Shown: positions 28,543-41,607, counted from the first letter of the stretch. The stretch is 64,000 bases of DNA from Candidatus Babeliales bacterium (GCA_963762115.1 CAVXJH010000006.1:320001-384000); one strand, 5' to 3'. Made by a program: numbers and translations. The notes: a model not told the origin generated them from the sequence alone.

Positions 28543-29049
28543 ATGAGAAAAATGATTGTTGTGGGTATGGCATTGTTTTTTAGCATAACAAATGCAATGA
28601 ATTTACCATTGTTAGATGGTAATTATATCCCTGTTTATGTAGTATCACGTGCAAAATTCCAAGAGCAGAATGTTATTAATGCGACATCATCTAATAAACC
28701 AGTTATTGATCCCGCTTTATTAACAACATATCAATTAATAGTGCAAGATGAACCAATACATGATTTAGAAAATGAAAAAAATAAGTATGGTAGCGCAGAA
28801 AAGAAAACAACAATTGCTTATTTTTGTCTAGTGCCTACGTGCCAAAAGGCTCTATTAAAAAGATATCGGTATGTACATGAGGCATGGCATCTTAATACAG
28901 AACCGCATAGATGCGATTCATGTCAATTGGCATTCGAAACTAAATATTGTTTAATAACTCATTGTAAATCCAAAGTGCATAGGACTGGATTTTTGGGCAG
29001 CAGATTATCAGCGACATCTGATAATAATGGTATTAATTCTTTACAGTAA
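28543..29049 (+). CDS. Secreted C2H2 zinc-finger protein, divergent member of the array family
   Basis: Signal peptide NA|MNLPLLDGN matching the array N-terminus; CLVPTC...HEAWH and CDSC...HCKSKVH fingers. Confidence 0.8.
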   Translation: MRKMIVVGMALFFSITNAMNLPLLDGNYIPVYVVSRAKFQEQNVINATSSNKPVIDPALLTTYQLIVQDEPIHDLENEKNKYGSAEKKTTIAYFCLVPTCQKALLKRYRYVHEAWHLNTEPHRCDSCQLAFETKYCLITHCKSKVHRTGFLGSRLSATSDNNGINSLQ

Positions 29050-29136
29050 TAAATAATGTTGAGGCATAAAAAATTGCCTATCCTACGAATAAAAAACACT
29101 AAAAAACAGGTTAAAATAGTTAAAAAAGCCTGCTTA

Positions 29137-29164
29137 TTGACTAATTAATAATTTCTGTTAGAAT
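29137..29164 (+). promoter_or_regulatory. Sigma70-like promoter upstream of the zinc-finger array
   Basis: TTGACT-N16-TAGAAT with an extended -10 TG, about 100 nt before the first array ATG. Confidence 0.45.
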
Positions 29165-29267
29165 ATAATATATAATCAAAACAATCATTTTAATGCAATT
29201 TGCTGGAAATATGGTTAAATTTTGATGTTTATAGTAATTAAAAAGAATTTAGGGAAGGACAAATCGT

Positions 29268-30167
29268 ATGAAAAAAATAGTTATTATATTAGCATTTATT
29301 TTTGTTGGCATGGCTAATGCTATGCAACAATGGTCATTATTAGATGGTAATGAAGTTCCTCAATATGTACATACTGATCCTGCAAAAATTGCTTATCTAA
29401 AAGATATACAAGGTTTATATCATCGTATTCAACGAGAAGATGTTCAATCGTGTACCCAAGAAGAAATTCAATCAGAAGGCCGCACTAAAGGACCGGGTAT
29501 TGAACAACTATTTTCTTTTCTCGTGCCAGTGCAAAATCATGATGTTCCTCATATAAAACCATTTGAGGGTGATTTTTATTTGACTGAACATGAAAATGAT
29601 GAAGAAGAAGTTTTTGCGCCATTAATTCTTGATTGTTCGCAAGAAGCTTCAGTAAAAAATGCTGAAAAACAACAGGATCGAGCGACTGTTGATCGCCAAG
29701 AAAAAGAATTGGAGAGTATGCAGTCAATTTTCTTGGGGCAAATAAAAGAGAAAAGTAATCCCAGAAAAAAAAGAACACTTAAAGAAGCCATTGCATCTGA
29801 TGAAAAAAATAGAAACCTCTCTAAGGAATCTGTTGTATTAAATGCAAGTAAAAGATCAATGTCATCAAAAAATATGGAGATATGCGGTATTAATGGTTGT
29901 CAGTATCGTTCAGCTTTTAATAGTGATATGAAAGTCCATAAAAGAAAACCACATAAATTGATAGAATGCCCTTATCCTGATTGTAGTGCTCCTTATCAGT
30001 CTCAAGATGGTTTGTCGCAACATATTGGTGATGCTCATCCGGAAAAATATTGTAAGGTGTGTGATTATGCACCAAAGAAACTGGGTAATTTATTAAGGCA
30101 TTTTCGAGGTGTTGAACATCTCAGGAAGTTGGCATCTATTAATTCTAGGGAAGGACAAATCGTATGA
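29268..30167 (+). CDS. Secreted triple C2H2 zinc-finger protein, array copy 1
   Basis: Signal peptide MKKIVIILAFIFVGMANA; RKKR cluster; CGINGC, CPYPDC and CKVC fingers. Confidence 0.9.
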   Translation: MKKIVIILAFIFVGMANAMQQWSLLDGNEVPQYVHTDPAKIAYLKDIQGLYHRIQREDVQSCTQEEIQSEGRTKGPGIEQLFSFLVPVQNHDVPHIKPFEGDFYLTEHENDEEEVFAPLILDCSQEASVKNAEKQQDRATVDRQEKELESMQSIFLGQIKEKSNPRKKRTLKEAIASDEKNRNLSKESVVLNASKRSMSSKNMEICGINGCQYRSAFNSDMKVHKRKPHKLIECPYPDCSAPYQSQDGLSQHIGDAHPEKYCKVCDYAPKKLGNLLRHFRGVEHLRKLASINSREGQIV

Positions 30168-39069: not shown

Positions 39070-39960
39070 ATGAAAAAAATATTTATTGTATTGGCATTTA
39101 TTTTTGTTGGCATGGCTAATGCTATGCAATTGCCATTATTAGATGGTAATAAAGTTCGTCAATATGTACATACTGATCCTAAAGAAATTGCTTATCTAAA
39201 AGGCATACAAAATATTCAACAAGAAAATGTTCAATCGTGTACTCAAGAAAAAATTCAAGCGGAAGAACGTACGAGTGGACCAGGCATTGAACAAATATTT
39301 TCTTTTCTCAAGTCAGTGCAGAACCATGATGTTCCTCATATAAAACCATTTGAGAGTGATTCTTATTTGATTGAATATCAAAATGATGAAAAAAAAGAAG
39401 TTTCTGCGCCATTAATTCTTGGTTTTTGTTCAGTAGAAAATGCTGATGAACAACAAGGTCGAGCGACTGTTGATCGCCCAAAAAAAGGATTGGAGGGTAT
39501 GCAGTTCAGCTTTTTGTTGCAACCAAAAGAGAAAAGTAATTCTAAAAAAAGAACATGTGAAGAAGCAGCTTCATCTGATGAAAAAAAGAGCGGTCTCTCT
39601 AAGGAATCTGCTGTATCAAATGCAAGCAAAAGGGCTGCAAATAAAAGTTCAACATCGTCAGAAAAAATGAAGATATGCGGTATGAATGGTTGTAGCTTTA
39701 GTGCAGTATTGCGTGATACCATTAGGCGTCATCAAGAAACACGGCATGAGCAAAAGCAATGCCCTTATCCTGGTTGTGCTTTTCACTATCAATCCAAAGC
39801 TGATTTTTCGCAACATATTGATAATGCCCATCCAGAACTATGTTGTACTATTTGTGGTTATGAGACAAGGAAACGGTCTTGTTTATTACAACATTTTCAA
39901 AGTATTAAACATCGCAAGAATCTGGCATTTATTAATTCTGGGGAAGGACAAATCGTATGA
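39070..39960 (+). CDS. Secreted triple C2H2 zinc-finger protein, array copy 12
   Basis: Same architecture. Confidence 0.9.
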   Translation: MKKIFIVLAFIFVGMANAMQLPLLDGNKVRQYVHTDPKEIAYLKGIQNIQQENVQSCTQEKIQAEERTSGPGIEQIFSFLKSVQNHDVPHIKPFESDSYLIEYQNDEKKEVSAPLILGFCSVENADEQQGRATVDRPKKGLEGMQFSFLLQPKEKSNSKKRTCEEAASSDEKKSGLSKESAVSNASKRAANKSSTSSEKMKICGMNGCSFSAVLRDTIRRHQETRHEQKQCPYPGCAFHYQSKADFSQHIDNAHPELCCTICGYETRKRSCLLQHFQSIKHRKNLAFINSGEGQIV

Positions 39961-40538
39961 AAAAAATATTTATTGTATTAGCGTTTATTTTTTGTAGTGT
40001 GTTGTATGGTATGGAAGAATCAACTGAAGACTATGTTGAAAGAAAATTAAGCGAAGCATTTTCTTTGCTTGATAAAACGATGTTGTTATCACGAGATTCA
40101 AACGGAGCTTCAAAGAGTATTGATGATGAGGAGTTATTTTTAACTGAAGCTGATCTAGTTGATGTATTATACCCAAATACTCCAAAACCAAATACTAAAT
40201 CTTCAAGCAGGGGATTAAAAAGAAGCTTCGAAATGATGATTAATAGTGATCATGTAAGAGATCAAGATTTTGATGATCATAAAGATCAAGATATAAAATG
40301 GCAAGGTAAGGATGAAAAAGAGTGTTCTTTGTGTGGTAAAATTATAGCTAATCTTAGGTATAAAAAGTCGCATGAATTGTGGCATAGGAAAACTGTAGAA
40401 AAAAATAAACGATGTGATGCATGTAAATATGCATTTGAGTCTAGGAGTGGTTATTATTCTCATAATAAATCAACTATTCATAATCGCGTAATTTCCTATA
40501 GAGCATTTAAGGTTGAATCTATTTCTTGTGGGAATTAG
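39957..40538 (+). CDS. Secreted zinc-finger protein, second subfamily, C-terminally truncated
   Basis: Signal peptide YG|MEE; CSLC...HELWH and CDAC...HNKSTIH fingers; paralog of 40711..41607 with a premature TAG. Confidence 0.8.
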   Translation: MKKIFIVLAFIFCSVLYGMEESTEDYVERKLSEAFSLLDKTMLLSRDSNGASKSIDDEELFLTEADLVDVLYPNTPKPNTKSSSRGLKRSFEMMINSDHVRDQDFDDHKDQDIKWQGKDEKECSLCGKIIANLRYKKSHELWHRKTVEKNKRCDACKYAFESRSGYYSHNKSTIHNRVISYRAFKVESISCGN

Positions 40539-40705
40539 AGACATTTTGAGATCAGCGGCGCAAATGCAATGCAGCCAATTAAGAGAGTTTTCATGAAGAC
40601 AAAAAATGTCATAATTGCAGTCACGTGTTTTTGAGTCGATCAGCACTCAACCAGCATAAAAGGGATTGTAAGGATCCGGCATTTATTAATTTTAAATTAG
40701 GGTAA
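40539..40705 (+). pseudogene. Decayed 3' tail of the 39957 gene
   Basis: Aligns to the 3' part of 40711..41607 with a 1-bp deletion and a second stop; still encodes HEDKKCHNCSHVFLSRSALNQHKRDCKDPAFINFKLG*. Confidence 0.8.
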
Positions 40706-40710
40706 ATCGT

Positions 40711-41607
40711 ATGAAAAAAATATTTATTGTATTAGCGTTTATTTTTTGTAGTGTGTTGCGTGGTATGGAAGAACCCCCTGAGGACTATGATAAAAGAAAA
40801 TTAAATGAAGAAATGGCTTTGTTTGATCAAGCGATGTTGTTATTACAAGGCCAAAACGGAGTTTCAAATAATATTGATGATGATGAGTTATTTTTAACTG
40901 AAGCTGATTTAGTTGACGTATTATATCCAAATATTCCGGAGCCGGATACTGAAGCTTCAAGCAGGGGATTAAAAAGAAGCTTCGAAACGATGATTGATAA
41001 TGAACATGAGAAGGGTCAAAATTTTGATAATCATAAAAATCAAATGGTAGAATGGAAGGGTCTCGATAAAAAAGAATGTTCTTTGTGTAGTAAAATTATA
41101 CCTATGCGGAGCTATCAAAAACCGCATGAACTGTGGCATAGGAGGCGAACTAATGTTTCAGAAAGTGATGGACTTAGATGTGATGCATGTAAATATGTAT
41201 TTGGATCTAGGAATGGTTTTAATTCTCATTATAAGTCAGATGTTCATTACGACGTAATTTCCTATAGAGGATCAGAGGTTGGATCTATTTCTCGTGAGAA
41301 TGAGAGTTATTTTGAGATCAGCGATGTAAATGCTGTGCAGGCCAATCAAGAGAGCCTTCATGAAGAAAAAAAATGTCAATTTTGTTCAGCTTCCATTCAA
41401 TCTTTAGATCATTTAAAAAAGCATTTTAAAGATTCTCATGCAAAAGAAAGATCGTGCCCTATCTGTGGTTGGAAAGTGAAACAATTAATGATTTTGGCAA
41501 AACACTTATTTGAAGATAAGCATGAAGAAAAAGAATGTTATAATTGCAGTCAAGTGTTTTTGAGTCGACCAGCACTTAATCAACATAACAAGCATTGTTT
41601 AGAATGA
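40711..41607 (+). CDS. Secreted five-finger C2H2/C2HC zinc-finger protein, second subfamily
   Basis: Signal peptide RG|MEE; acidic N-region; LKRS basic patch; CSLC, CDAC, CQFC, CPIC and CYNC fingers. Confidence 0.9.
   Translation: MKKIFIVLAFIFCSVLRGMEEPPEDYDKRKLNEEMALFDQAMLLLQGQNGVSNNIDDDELFLTEADLVDVLYPNIPEPDTEASSRGLKRSFETMIDNEHEKGQNFDNHKNQMVEWKGLDKKECSLCSKIIPMRSYQKPHELWHRRRTNVSESDGLRCDACKYVFGSRNGFNSHYKSDVHYDVISYRGSEVGSISRENESYFEISDVNAVQANQESLHEEKKCQFCSASIQSLDHLKKHFKDSHAKERSCPICGWKVKQLMILAKHLFEDKHEEKECYNCSQVFLSRPALNQHNKHCLE

Follow-up and report, generated by a model that had tools for sequence, protein, structure and literature searches.

A tandem array of genes for putatively exported C2H2 zinc-finger proteins with diverse helices in a Babelota bacterium

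The window analysed here is a 64,000-nucleotide stretch of DNA from a Candidatus Babeliales bacterium (GCA_963762115.1 CAVXJH010000006.1:320001-384000). Between positions 28543 and 41607 it contains a tandem array of genes for proteins with signal-peptide-like starts and C2H2 zinc fingers. The 15-gene array had been described in an earlier note made from the sequence alone, and all 15 open reading frames (ORFs) were confirmed at these positions, head to tail on the plus strand. They comprise one upstream member (p0), twelve core paralogs (p1 to p12, 29268-39960) and two members of a second subfamily (p13 and p14). Their products are, on balance, probably exported effectors that would likely enter the nucleus of a host protist and bind DNA. 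The features of the locus are listed below; helix positions are numbered from -1 to +6 and F1 to F3 denote fingers 1 to 3.

27396..28277, minus: left flank, ankyrin-repeat gene, syntenic in the genome G001
28543..29049, plus: p0, divergent upstream member, 168 amino acids (aa), signal-peptide-like start, two fingers, the last one H-x5-H
29137..29164, plus: weak sigma-70-like site, possible operon promoter, 10/12 matches with TG, 5' of the core run
29268..30167, plus: core paralog p1, 299 aa, helices F1 FNSDMKV and F3 KLGNLLR (-1 to +6)
30164..31156, plus: core paralog p2, 330 aa
31153..32121, plus: core paralog p3, 322 aa, reference for the structure models
31153..31206, plus: predicted signal peptide of p3, aa 1-18, ending A-N-A before M19, called by a crude rule and not by SignalP, omega 0.27
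31699..31707, plus: KRT motif of p3, aa 183-185, conserved without exception in the 12 core paralogs, putatively a nuclear localisation signal (NLS)-like motif
31828..32064, plus: three C2H2 fingers of p3, aa 226-304, with 4-residue linkers, mean predicted local distance difference test (pLDDT) 86.9
32118..32969, plus: core paralog p4, 283 aa, fingers 2 and 3 carry insertions
32957..33889, plus: core paralog p5, 310 aa
33895..34656, plus: core paralog p6, 253 aa, finger 1 lacks 2 aa, finger 3 carries an insertion
34653..35594, plus: core paralog p7, 313 aa, finger 1 DNA 96% identical to p8
35600..36601, plus: core paralog p8, 333 aa
36598..37392, plus: core paralog p9, 264 aa, 5' segment DNA 98% identical to p10
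37389..38222, plus: core paralog p10, 277 aa
38228..39046, plus: core paralog p11, 272 aa, C-terminus carries a fourth finger
39070..39960, plus: core paralog p12, 296 aa
39957..40538, plus: second-subfamily p13, 193 aa, with two fingers, a truncated copy of p14 (81% DNA identity over 668 columns)
40539..40710, plus: relic of a terminal finger and repeat-unit tail, 3' of the p13 stop
40711..41607, plus: second-subfamily p14, 298 aa, five finger-like motifs, two of which match core fingers 2-3 (hhalign probability 94.8)
41853..43148, plus: right flank, metallophosphoesterase gene, syntenic in G001

Along the core run and up to the start of p13 (39957), the inter-gene gaps are -4, -13, +5 or +23 nucleotides. 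The twelve core genes and p13 thus overlap or nearly touch their neighbours, which suggests that they form one coupled operon. Promoter-like sites were not in excess over chance in the region (59 against 57.9 in shuffled sequences), and a scan of the plus strand 3' of the array found no terminator. Outside the core run, the N-terminal 36 aa of p0 matched the core profile with an hhalign probability of 92.8.

The core paralogs share 73-88% of their DNA sequence and 60-77% of their protein sequence with p3 as the protein reference. Since they differ by 12-27% in DNA, match public runs exactly and have independent relatives elsewhere, an assembly artefact is unlikely. Low-depth contigs from three public runs (two studies) matched paralog-specific stretches with zero mismatches; 22 of the 31 matching pieces were inspected, and some are short unrelated matches. 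Another metagenome assembly contains four further family members with partly different helices, on two short contigs. The array itself is located on a 586-kb contig, its flanks are syntenic in G001, its GC content is like that of the remaining window and its gene junctions are coupled in a bacterial style. In favour of an artefact, or of eukaryotic contamination, speaks that no read or contig in the three public runs bridges a junction between paralogs. Taken together, we regard this explanation as very improbable indeed.

Core proteins are built from an 18-residue leader (mostly A-N-A followed by Met), a variable region of about 135-220 residues, the KRT motif and three fingers. The signal peptides reported earlier for the core copies are supported as signal-peptide-like N-termini, as 15 of 15 array proteins pass a crude in-house rule; this rule, and not SignalP, underlies all signal-peptide calls in this work. 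The region after the leader carries large in-frame indels between paralogs and is predicted to be disordered, and residues 54-219 of p3 have a pLDDT below 50. It had been described as acidic and hydrophobic; the N-terminal region turned out to be mildly acidic (net charge -16 to +3). Concerning the basic clusters given as RKRT...SKKVARK, KRT is present in all twelve core proteins, but the exact SKKVARK in six of them. As the KRT codons are invariant too, the conservation of KRT is possibly due to gene conversion. The finger region is basic, with a net charge of +4 to +13 and a pI of 8.7-9.8 in the core.

All 12 zinc-ligand columns are invariant across the twelve core paralogs, so that the predicted zinc binding is strictly kept. 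The pattern C-x2-4-C-x12-H-x3-5-H with x12 spacing is found in 32 of 36 core fingers. Finger 3 has H-x5-H in 12 of 12 paralogs and x12 in 10 of 12. Fingers 1 and 3 carry an aromatic residue two places past the second Cys, unlike the Kruppel type. The residue pairs at +2/+3 of finger 1 and the helices of finger 3 quoted in the earlier note match the core sequences exactly, and finger 2 is conserved at -1/+2/+3/+6 with mostly S/G/E/Q. For the finger region of p3, AlphaFold2 predicted three hairpin-plus-helix fingers (mean pLDDT 86.9). The top Foldseek rows were multi-C2H2 proteins such as ZFAT and CTCF (best E 0.0096, none at E<=0.001), and the predicted C2H2 fold of the core fingers is supported by these models. 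Pfam zinc-finger matches were present on the array proteins, but all stayed under the curated cut-offs, with best scores of 21.1 against 25.2 bits for PF00096 and 25.7 against 27 bits for PF13909. Proteins of relatives clear the PF00096 cut-off with 76.9 and 92.4 bits.

The nearest paralog shifts from segment to segment and a PHI-like test gave p=0.001; the core genes can therefore be considered as recombination mosaics. Selection was analysed with an in-house MG94 codon model, fitted with a shared or a free synonymous rate. With the shared rate, the ligands had an omega (dN/dS) of 0 and the leader one of 0.27, compared to 1.0 for the N-terminal region and 1.5-1.7 for other finger sites. At the recognition positions -1/+2/+3/+6, omega amounted to 3.9-9.4 in finger 1 and 3.3 in finger 3. 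Forty neutral simulations, in which each finger had its own tree, yielded values of at most 1.7; they modelled recombination between fingers and not recombination within fingers or multi-base changes. With the free rate, omega was 1.9-2.6 at the eight recognition sites of fingers 1 and 3 (p 0.01-0.10, marginal), 2.3-2.4 at 31 helix-face sites (p<=1e-4) and 1.5 at 25 hairpin sites (not significant), the first two groupings having been picked post hoc from the site results. A concentration of variation at all 12 recognition sites reached permutation p values of 0.016-0.21. Several non-recognition positions are as variable as -1/+2/+3/+6, and positive selection was also called in His-His spacers, at a knuckle and at a linker position. 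M2a was favoured over M1a in the finger region (2dL 34.9; p 0.023, 0.073 and 1e-4 per finger). This comparison was rejected as a lone proof of selection because N-terminal controls reject M1a too.

Judged from these rates, the helix surfaces are probably under diversifying selection, with a signal that is not confined to the classical code positions. The hypervariable recognition helices of the earlier note are thus borne out in the helix excess and in the fast positions of fingers 1 and 3, but not in the conserved finger 2 and not as a property of the code positions only. Its expectation for codon-level dN/dS probably holds for the helix face, whereas the recognition positions alone are marginal under the free synonymous rate.

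The same data bear on the alternative that an exported zinc-binding protein, serving for metal buffering, as a decoy or for no current function, was amplified in tandem in a largely neutral manner. Its diversity would then result from drift, patchy gene conversion and relaxed constraint. An omega of about 1 and large indels in the N-terminal region fit this explanation, as do the one truncated member, selection tests that respond to recombination and give signals in control regions as well, and the occurrence of the family in 260 other phylum genomes as weak matches only (<=39 bits). It nevertheless appears hardly probable, as all twelve core genes have kept open frames in spite of 12-27% divergence and many indels, omega is 0 at the ligands and 0.27 in the signal peptide, the simulations fall short of the observed omega and arrays with this build are found repeatedly in the phylum.

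A survey of related genomes, proposed in the earlier note, revealed proteins of the same build throughout the phylum, with canonical Kruppel linkers. PF00096 matches were found in 77 of 239 phylum genomes (55 over the cut-off) compared to one of 14 control genomes; the 77 are a lower bound since the window's own fingers escape this search. At 75 loci chosen for finger matches, 96 multi-finger ORFs were present, and 84 were kept after dropping 12 that are open at the 5' end. A signal peptide was predicted for 74 of the 84, compared to 66 of 133 other ORFs at 20 of the 75 loci (Fisher p 3e-9, which is overstated as paralogs and kin are non-independent and the start-choice rules differed slightly). 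Three of the ten leader-negative ORFs resemble antisense frames and three show a leader by eye. The linkers are of the canonical TGEKP type with seven residues in 322 of 409 cases. Neighbouring finger genes occur in nine of the 17 genomes with regions examined, which had been selected for multiple matches.

In the genome G042, seven genes encode 55 canonical fingers with 42 distinct helices, and entropy is highest at -1, +3 and +6. Its recognition sites have a pN of 0.54 compared to 0.22 at other surface sites; with a pN/pS of 0.79, positive selection is not shown there. The loci L039:7101-15885 (G042) and L040:157-3894 (G079) are tandem arrays encoding signal peptides, 4-12 TGEKP-linked fingers and basic NLS-like clusters. 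These canonical arrays are better suited for binding-site prediction than the family in the window, and the case for putative DNA binding is likewise stronger for the canonical arrays of relatives. In named genomes, the TGEKP pattern was found in at least 185 stretches. Outside the phylum, these include many from Endozoicomonadaceae and some from records of Pseudomonas, Xenorhabdus and Cardinium, of which the short contigs could represent contamination. Among the matches listed, those in Endozoicomonadaceae include the intranuclear Ca. Endonucleobacter, and just 12 of 76 5'-complete ORFs of non-Babelota matches pass the signal-peptide rule.

The source genome, most likely from Babelota (Dependentiae), has a size of 1.53 Mb with about 34% GC and is 95% complete. 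It encodes two secretins and two type II/IV ATPases, and has ATP/ADP translocase matches at three loci. This set fits the descriptions of TM6 genomes, with two gspD copies and translocases (PMC4776705), and of Chromulinavorax, for which signal peptides on 44% of the proteins and Sec export are given (PMC6561590). Cultured Babelota members are described to infect protists (PMC12172432), and an intracellular lifestyle, probably in protists, is likely for the source bacterium judging from its genes. Neither PF00771 (FHIPEP) nor PF03135 was detected in this 95%-complete genome, PF00771 being the only family searched for type III secretion. No description of C2H2 proteins with signal peptides in Babelota was found in the open literature, supplements and subscription papers aside. 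Zinc fingers are unmentioned in the main texts of PMC6561590 ('zinc' occurs once, for metal uptake) and PMC4776705 (zero times), whose supplementary domain tables could list them. The phylum-wide class of putatively exported multi-C2H2 proteins is apparently undescribed.

As a side observation on the leaders, [AGS]-Met occurs at residues 14-26 in 181 of 482 ORFs of the whole source genome that pass the signal-peptide rule, compared to 86 of 940 others. This Met is followed by E/D/Q/N in 136 of the 181, compared to 22% at internal [AGS]M. Mature proteins would there begin with Met-Glu/Gln/Asn/Asp, the type of end that is acetylated by eukaryotic NatB, and a possible adaptation to the host cytosol could be seen in this.

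For the array, we propose that a recently expanded and recombination-shuffled run of 15 genes provides products that would be exported from a likely intracellular Babelota bacterium. Sec export would be followed by cleavage before M19, and the outer membrane may be passed via the secretin machinery (type II or type IV pilus-like) or in vesicles. KRT and the downstream basic clusters could mediate nuclear import. Each paralog would bind its own set of host DNA sites and thereby alter host gene expression. Fingers 1 and 3 would carry the variable specificity, with finger 2 as a conserved spacer or fixed contact. The disordered region may recruit or block host factors, so that the proteins could act as activators or competitive repressors. 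The canonical Kruppel arrays of relatives likely serve the same job. As a tentative extension, exported multi-C2H2 transcription factors of eukaryotic type could form an arsenal that is shared across the Babelota, reprograms the genomes of protist hosts and has its DNA specificities renewed by duplication, finger shuffling and helix selection. It would be the bacterial equivalent of KRAB-ZNF clusters, employed in the manner of TAL effectors. In that case, the window would represent a short-linker version that arose independently and has its own recognition register; a parallel set would be carried by Endozoicomonadaceae.

A number of findings weigh against the assignment as exported nuclear DNA-binding effectors. 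A predicted signal peptide is by itself nothing special, since around one third to one half of all ORFs in the source genome satisfy the rule. The basic motifs fit the classical NLS consensus poorly, and an NLS-like pattern is present in just 35 of 74 signal-peptide proteins of relatives. Linkers have four residues in 24 of 24 core cases and are never the 7-residue TGEKP type; with such non-canonical linkers, the classical recognition code is not readable for the core family. Position -1 of finger 1 is hydrophobic in 9 of 11 cases. The best structural matches to the whole finger arrangement are compact finger pairs, all of them weak. Regarding selection, the recognition sites of finger 2 are not diversified (omega 0.9, shared rate), and all 12 recognition sites together reach a non-significant omega of 1.3-1.5 with the free rate. 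Synonymous change is raised at the helices, and M2a also fires on N-terminal control regions with 2dL of 26 and 8.9. By counting, pN/pS was 1.49 for finger 1, 1.18 for finger 3 and 0.37 for finger 2, compared to 1.15 at other finger sites. In the arrays of relatives, pN/pS at recognition sites was between 0.79 and 1.49, and in four of five genomes these sites were not clearly above other sites.

Several of these points suit exported effectors whose fingers bind host proteins and not DNA, where the exposed helix face of a compact module would track its targets or escape recognition. Apart from the 4-residue linkers, this explanation is favoured by the selected His-His spacers, knuckle and linker position, and by further signal-peptide proteins with ubiquitin-system domains encoded in the window. 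A structure search with the three-finger arrangement yielded 2wbt with Z 4.7 (root-mean-square deviation 4.2, 55 aligned), IDD10 with Z 3.7 and Zap1 with Z 3.6. The best arrangement matches are thus compact pairs, among them the protein-binding IDD10 fingers and Zap1, with weak Z values; no structure reached Z>=5 in this search, which is not informative on novelty. On the other hand, the finger region is basic, relatives of the same build carry canonical DNA-binding linkers and the finger-3 helices of the form x-R-S/G-N/D-L-L-R resemble DNA-binding helices. Protein binding is the main rival for the short-linker family, though unlikely, followed by RNA binding and neutral amplification, with an artefact being unlikely.

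In the case of RNA binding, the exported proteins would use an H-x5-H terminal finger of the JAZ/matrin type for double-stranded or structured host RNA, e.g. to block RNA silencing or processing. The spacing C-x2-C-x12-H-x5-H of this finger type is found in finger 3 of the core proteins and in the single syntenic gene of G001. Weak matches to zf-C2H2_jaz and zf-met (PF12171/PF12874) were obtained on p0 and p14 only; they are below the cut-off and none was found on the 12 core proteins. The linkers of JAZ fingers are long and their binding is not sequence-specific, which would leave the helix diversity unexplained. The JAZ structure 2mkn was ranked 42nd with Z 2.0. RNA binding is accordingly regarded as improbable, and host DNA is preferred as the putative target.

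TAL effectors of Xanthomonas and Ralstonia are bacterial, modular, diversified by recombination and host-nuclear; they consist of 33-35-residue TAL repeats and are delivered by type III secretion. They are the functional model proposed here, but the array differs by its C2H2 fingers, a Sec-type signal and the absence of a FHIPEP match in the genome. No TAL repeats of 33-35 residues and no respective Pfam match were detected in the 15 array proteins. KRAB-ZNF clusters and PRDM9-type arrays are tandem genes with finger shuffling and fast-changing helices. They share TGEKP-linked fingers with the proteins of relatives, but the array is bacterial, has signal peptides and non-canonical linkers, and none of its 15 proteins matched KRAB families at E<=0.1. 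From its sequence features, the array is assigned to none of the TAL, KRAB-ZNF, Kruppel-linker and Ros/MucR classes. Ros/MucR proteins also show C2H2-type zinc coordination in bacteria; Ros is described as a regulator of bacterial genes whose single finger, with a 9-residue spacer, is part of a larger domain (PMC9779718), whereas the core proteins carry a predicted signal peptide and three fingers with x12 spacing.

Secreted C2H2 proteins of a parasite are also represented by MoHTR1/2 of the fungus Magnaporthe oryzae, effectors described to bind host promoters and change their expression (PMC11555045), and by the nuclear effector MoHTR3 (PMC10189765). Compared by description, they are made by a eukaryote, whereas the array considered here is a bacterial, recombining 15-gene tandem array of three-finger units with predicted export. 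The nearest published statement found on bacteria is a zinc-finger enrichment in Kistimonas (Endozoicomonadaceae, PMC12491435), which belongs to another phylum; this statement gives neither finger type nor mechanism. Babelota proteins with ankyrin, WD40 or F-box domains and signal peptides have the same kind of leader and the same putative Sec export (PMC6561590, PMC4776705).

If the proposed function is true, a C2H2-based class would constitute a second general solution, in at least 1/4 to 1/3 of the phylum genomes searched, and would give a handle on how mostly uncultured protist parasites steer their hosts. To our knowledge, sequence-specific bacterial control of host genes is known mainly from TAL effectors. 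Since the arrays of relatives are canonical, their binding sites should be predictable and could be found in protist genomes, possibly revealing unknown hosts. The arrays would also represent a natural library of finger specificities evolved outside eukaryotes.

Concerning the origin of the array, the flanks are syntenic in the same-genus genome G001, with identities of 79% for the M23 peptidase, 34% for the ankyrin protein, 55% for the phosphoesterase and 56% for the dehydrogenase. Between them, G001 contains a single gene of 163 aa with a leader and one H-x5-H finger, which argues for a local expansion of the array. The last finger of p0 resembles that of the G001 gene weakly (10/23 identical, E 0.002); shared descent of both genes is likely, this weak similarity not being a demonstration. 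A search of 30 related genomes with one protein returned one weak match as to close relatives of the core family. The core finger profile gave weak matches in 31 of 260 other phylum genomes (best 39 bits). Two metagenome scans yielded no confirmed core-family locus, and only the four extra members were found, as proteins. A donor lineage was sought among 1.84 billion proteins and the candidates were rejected, as the best outside matches to the finger profile are long proteins that owe their scores to the number of finger repeats; those with a name are three, from a mite, an isopod and the alga Triparma, and no donor is assignable.

Further finger genes were noticed in the family and in the source genome. 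In the same-family genome G004, L278:1513-2664 encodes a 384-aa signal-peptide protein with seven finger motifs and adjoins an M23 peptidase gene, the same gene that flanks the window locus. The source genome encodes three more multi-finger proteins, at C3:39319-40503, C3:494556-495296 and C7:102624-103430; leaders are present on two of them, and the gene at C3:39319-40503 shows a leader-like stretch 5' of its first ATG. Two adjoining similar genes at 6447-7659 (minus strand) of the window have leader-like starts and C2H2-like fingers with one weak PF00096 match, and are in detail unrelated to the main array.

Other genes in the window were noted as well. Two tandem ORFs of about 745 aa at 267-4764 (plus strand) had no Pfam match at E<=0.05. 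The genes at 8336-9391 and 12037-13212 (both minus strand) have leader-like starts and encode either a RING-like or a ubiquitin C-terminal hydrolase domain (the latter with E 2.7e-45); their products are candidate ubiquitin-system effectors. At 52010-58844 (plus strand), three tandem paralogs encode proteins of 650-717 aa with a leader and weak BTB/Skp1 matches, two of them with weak beta-propeller matches.

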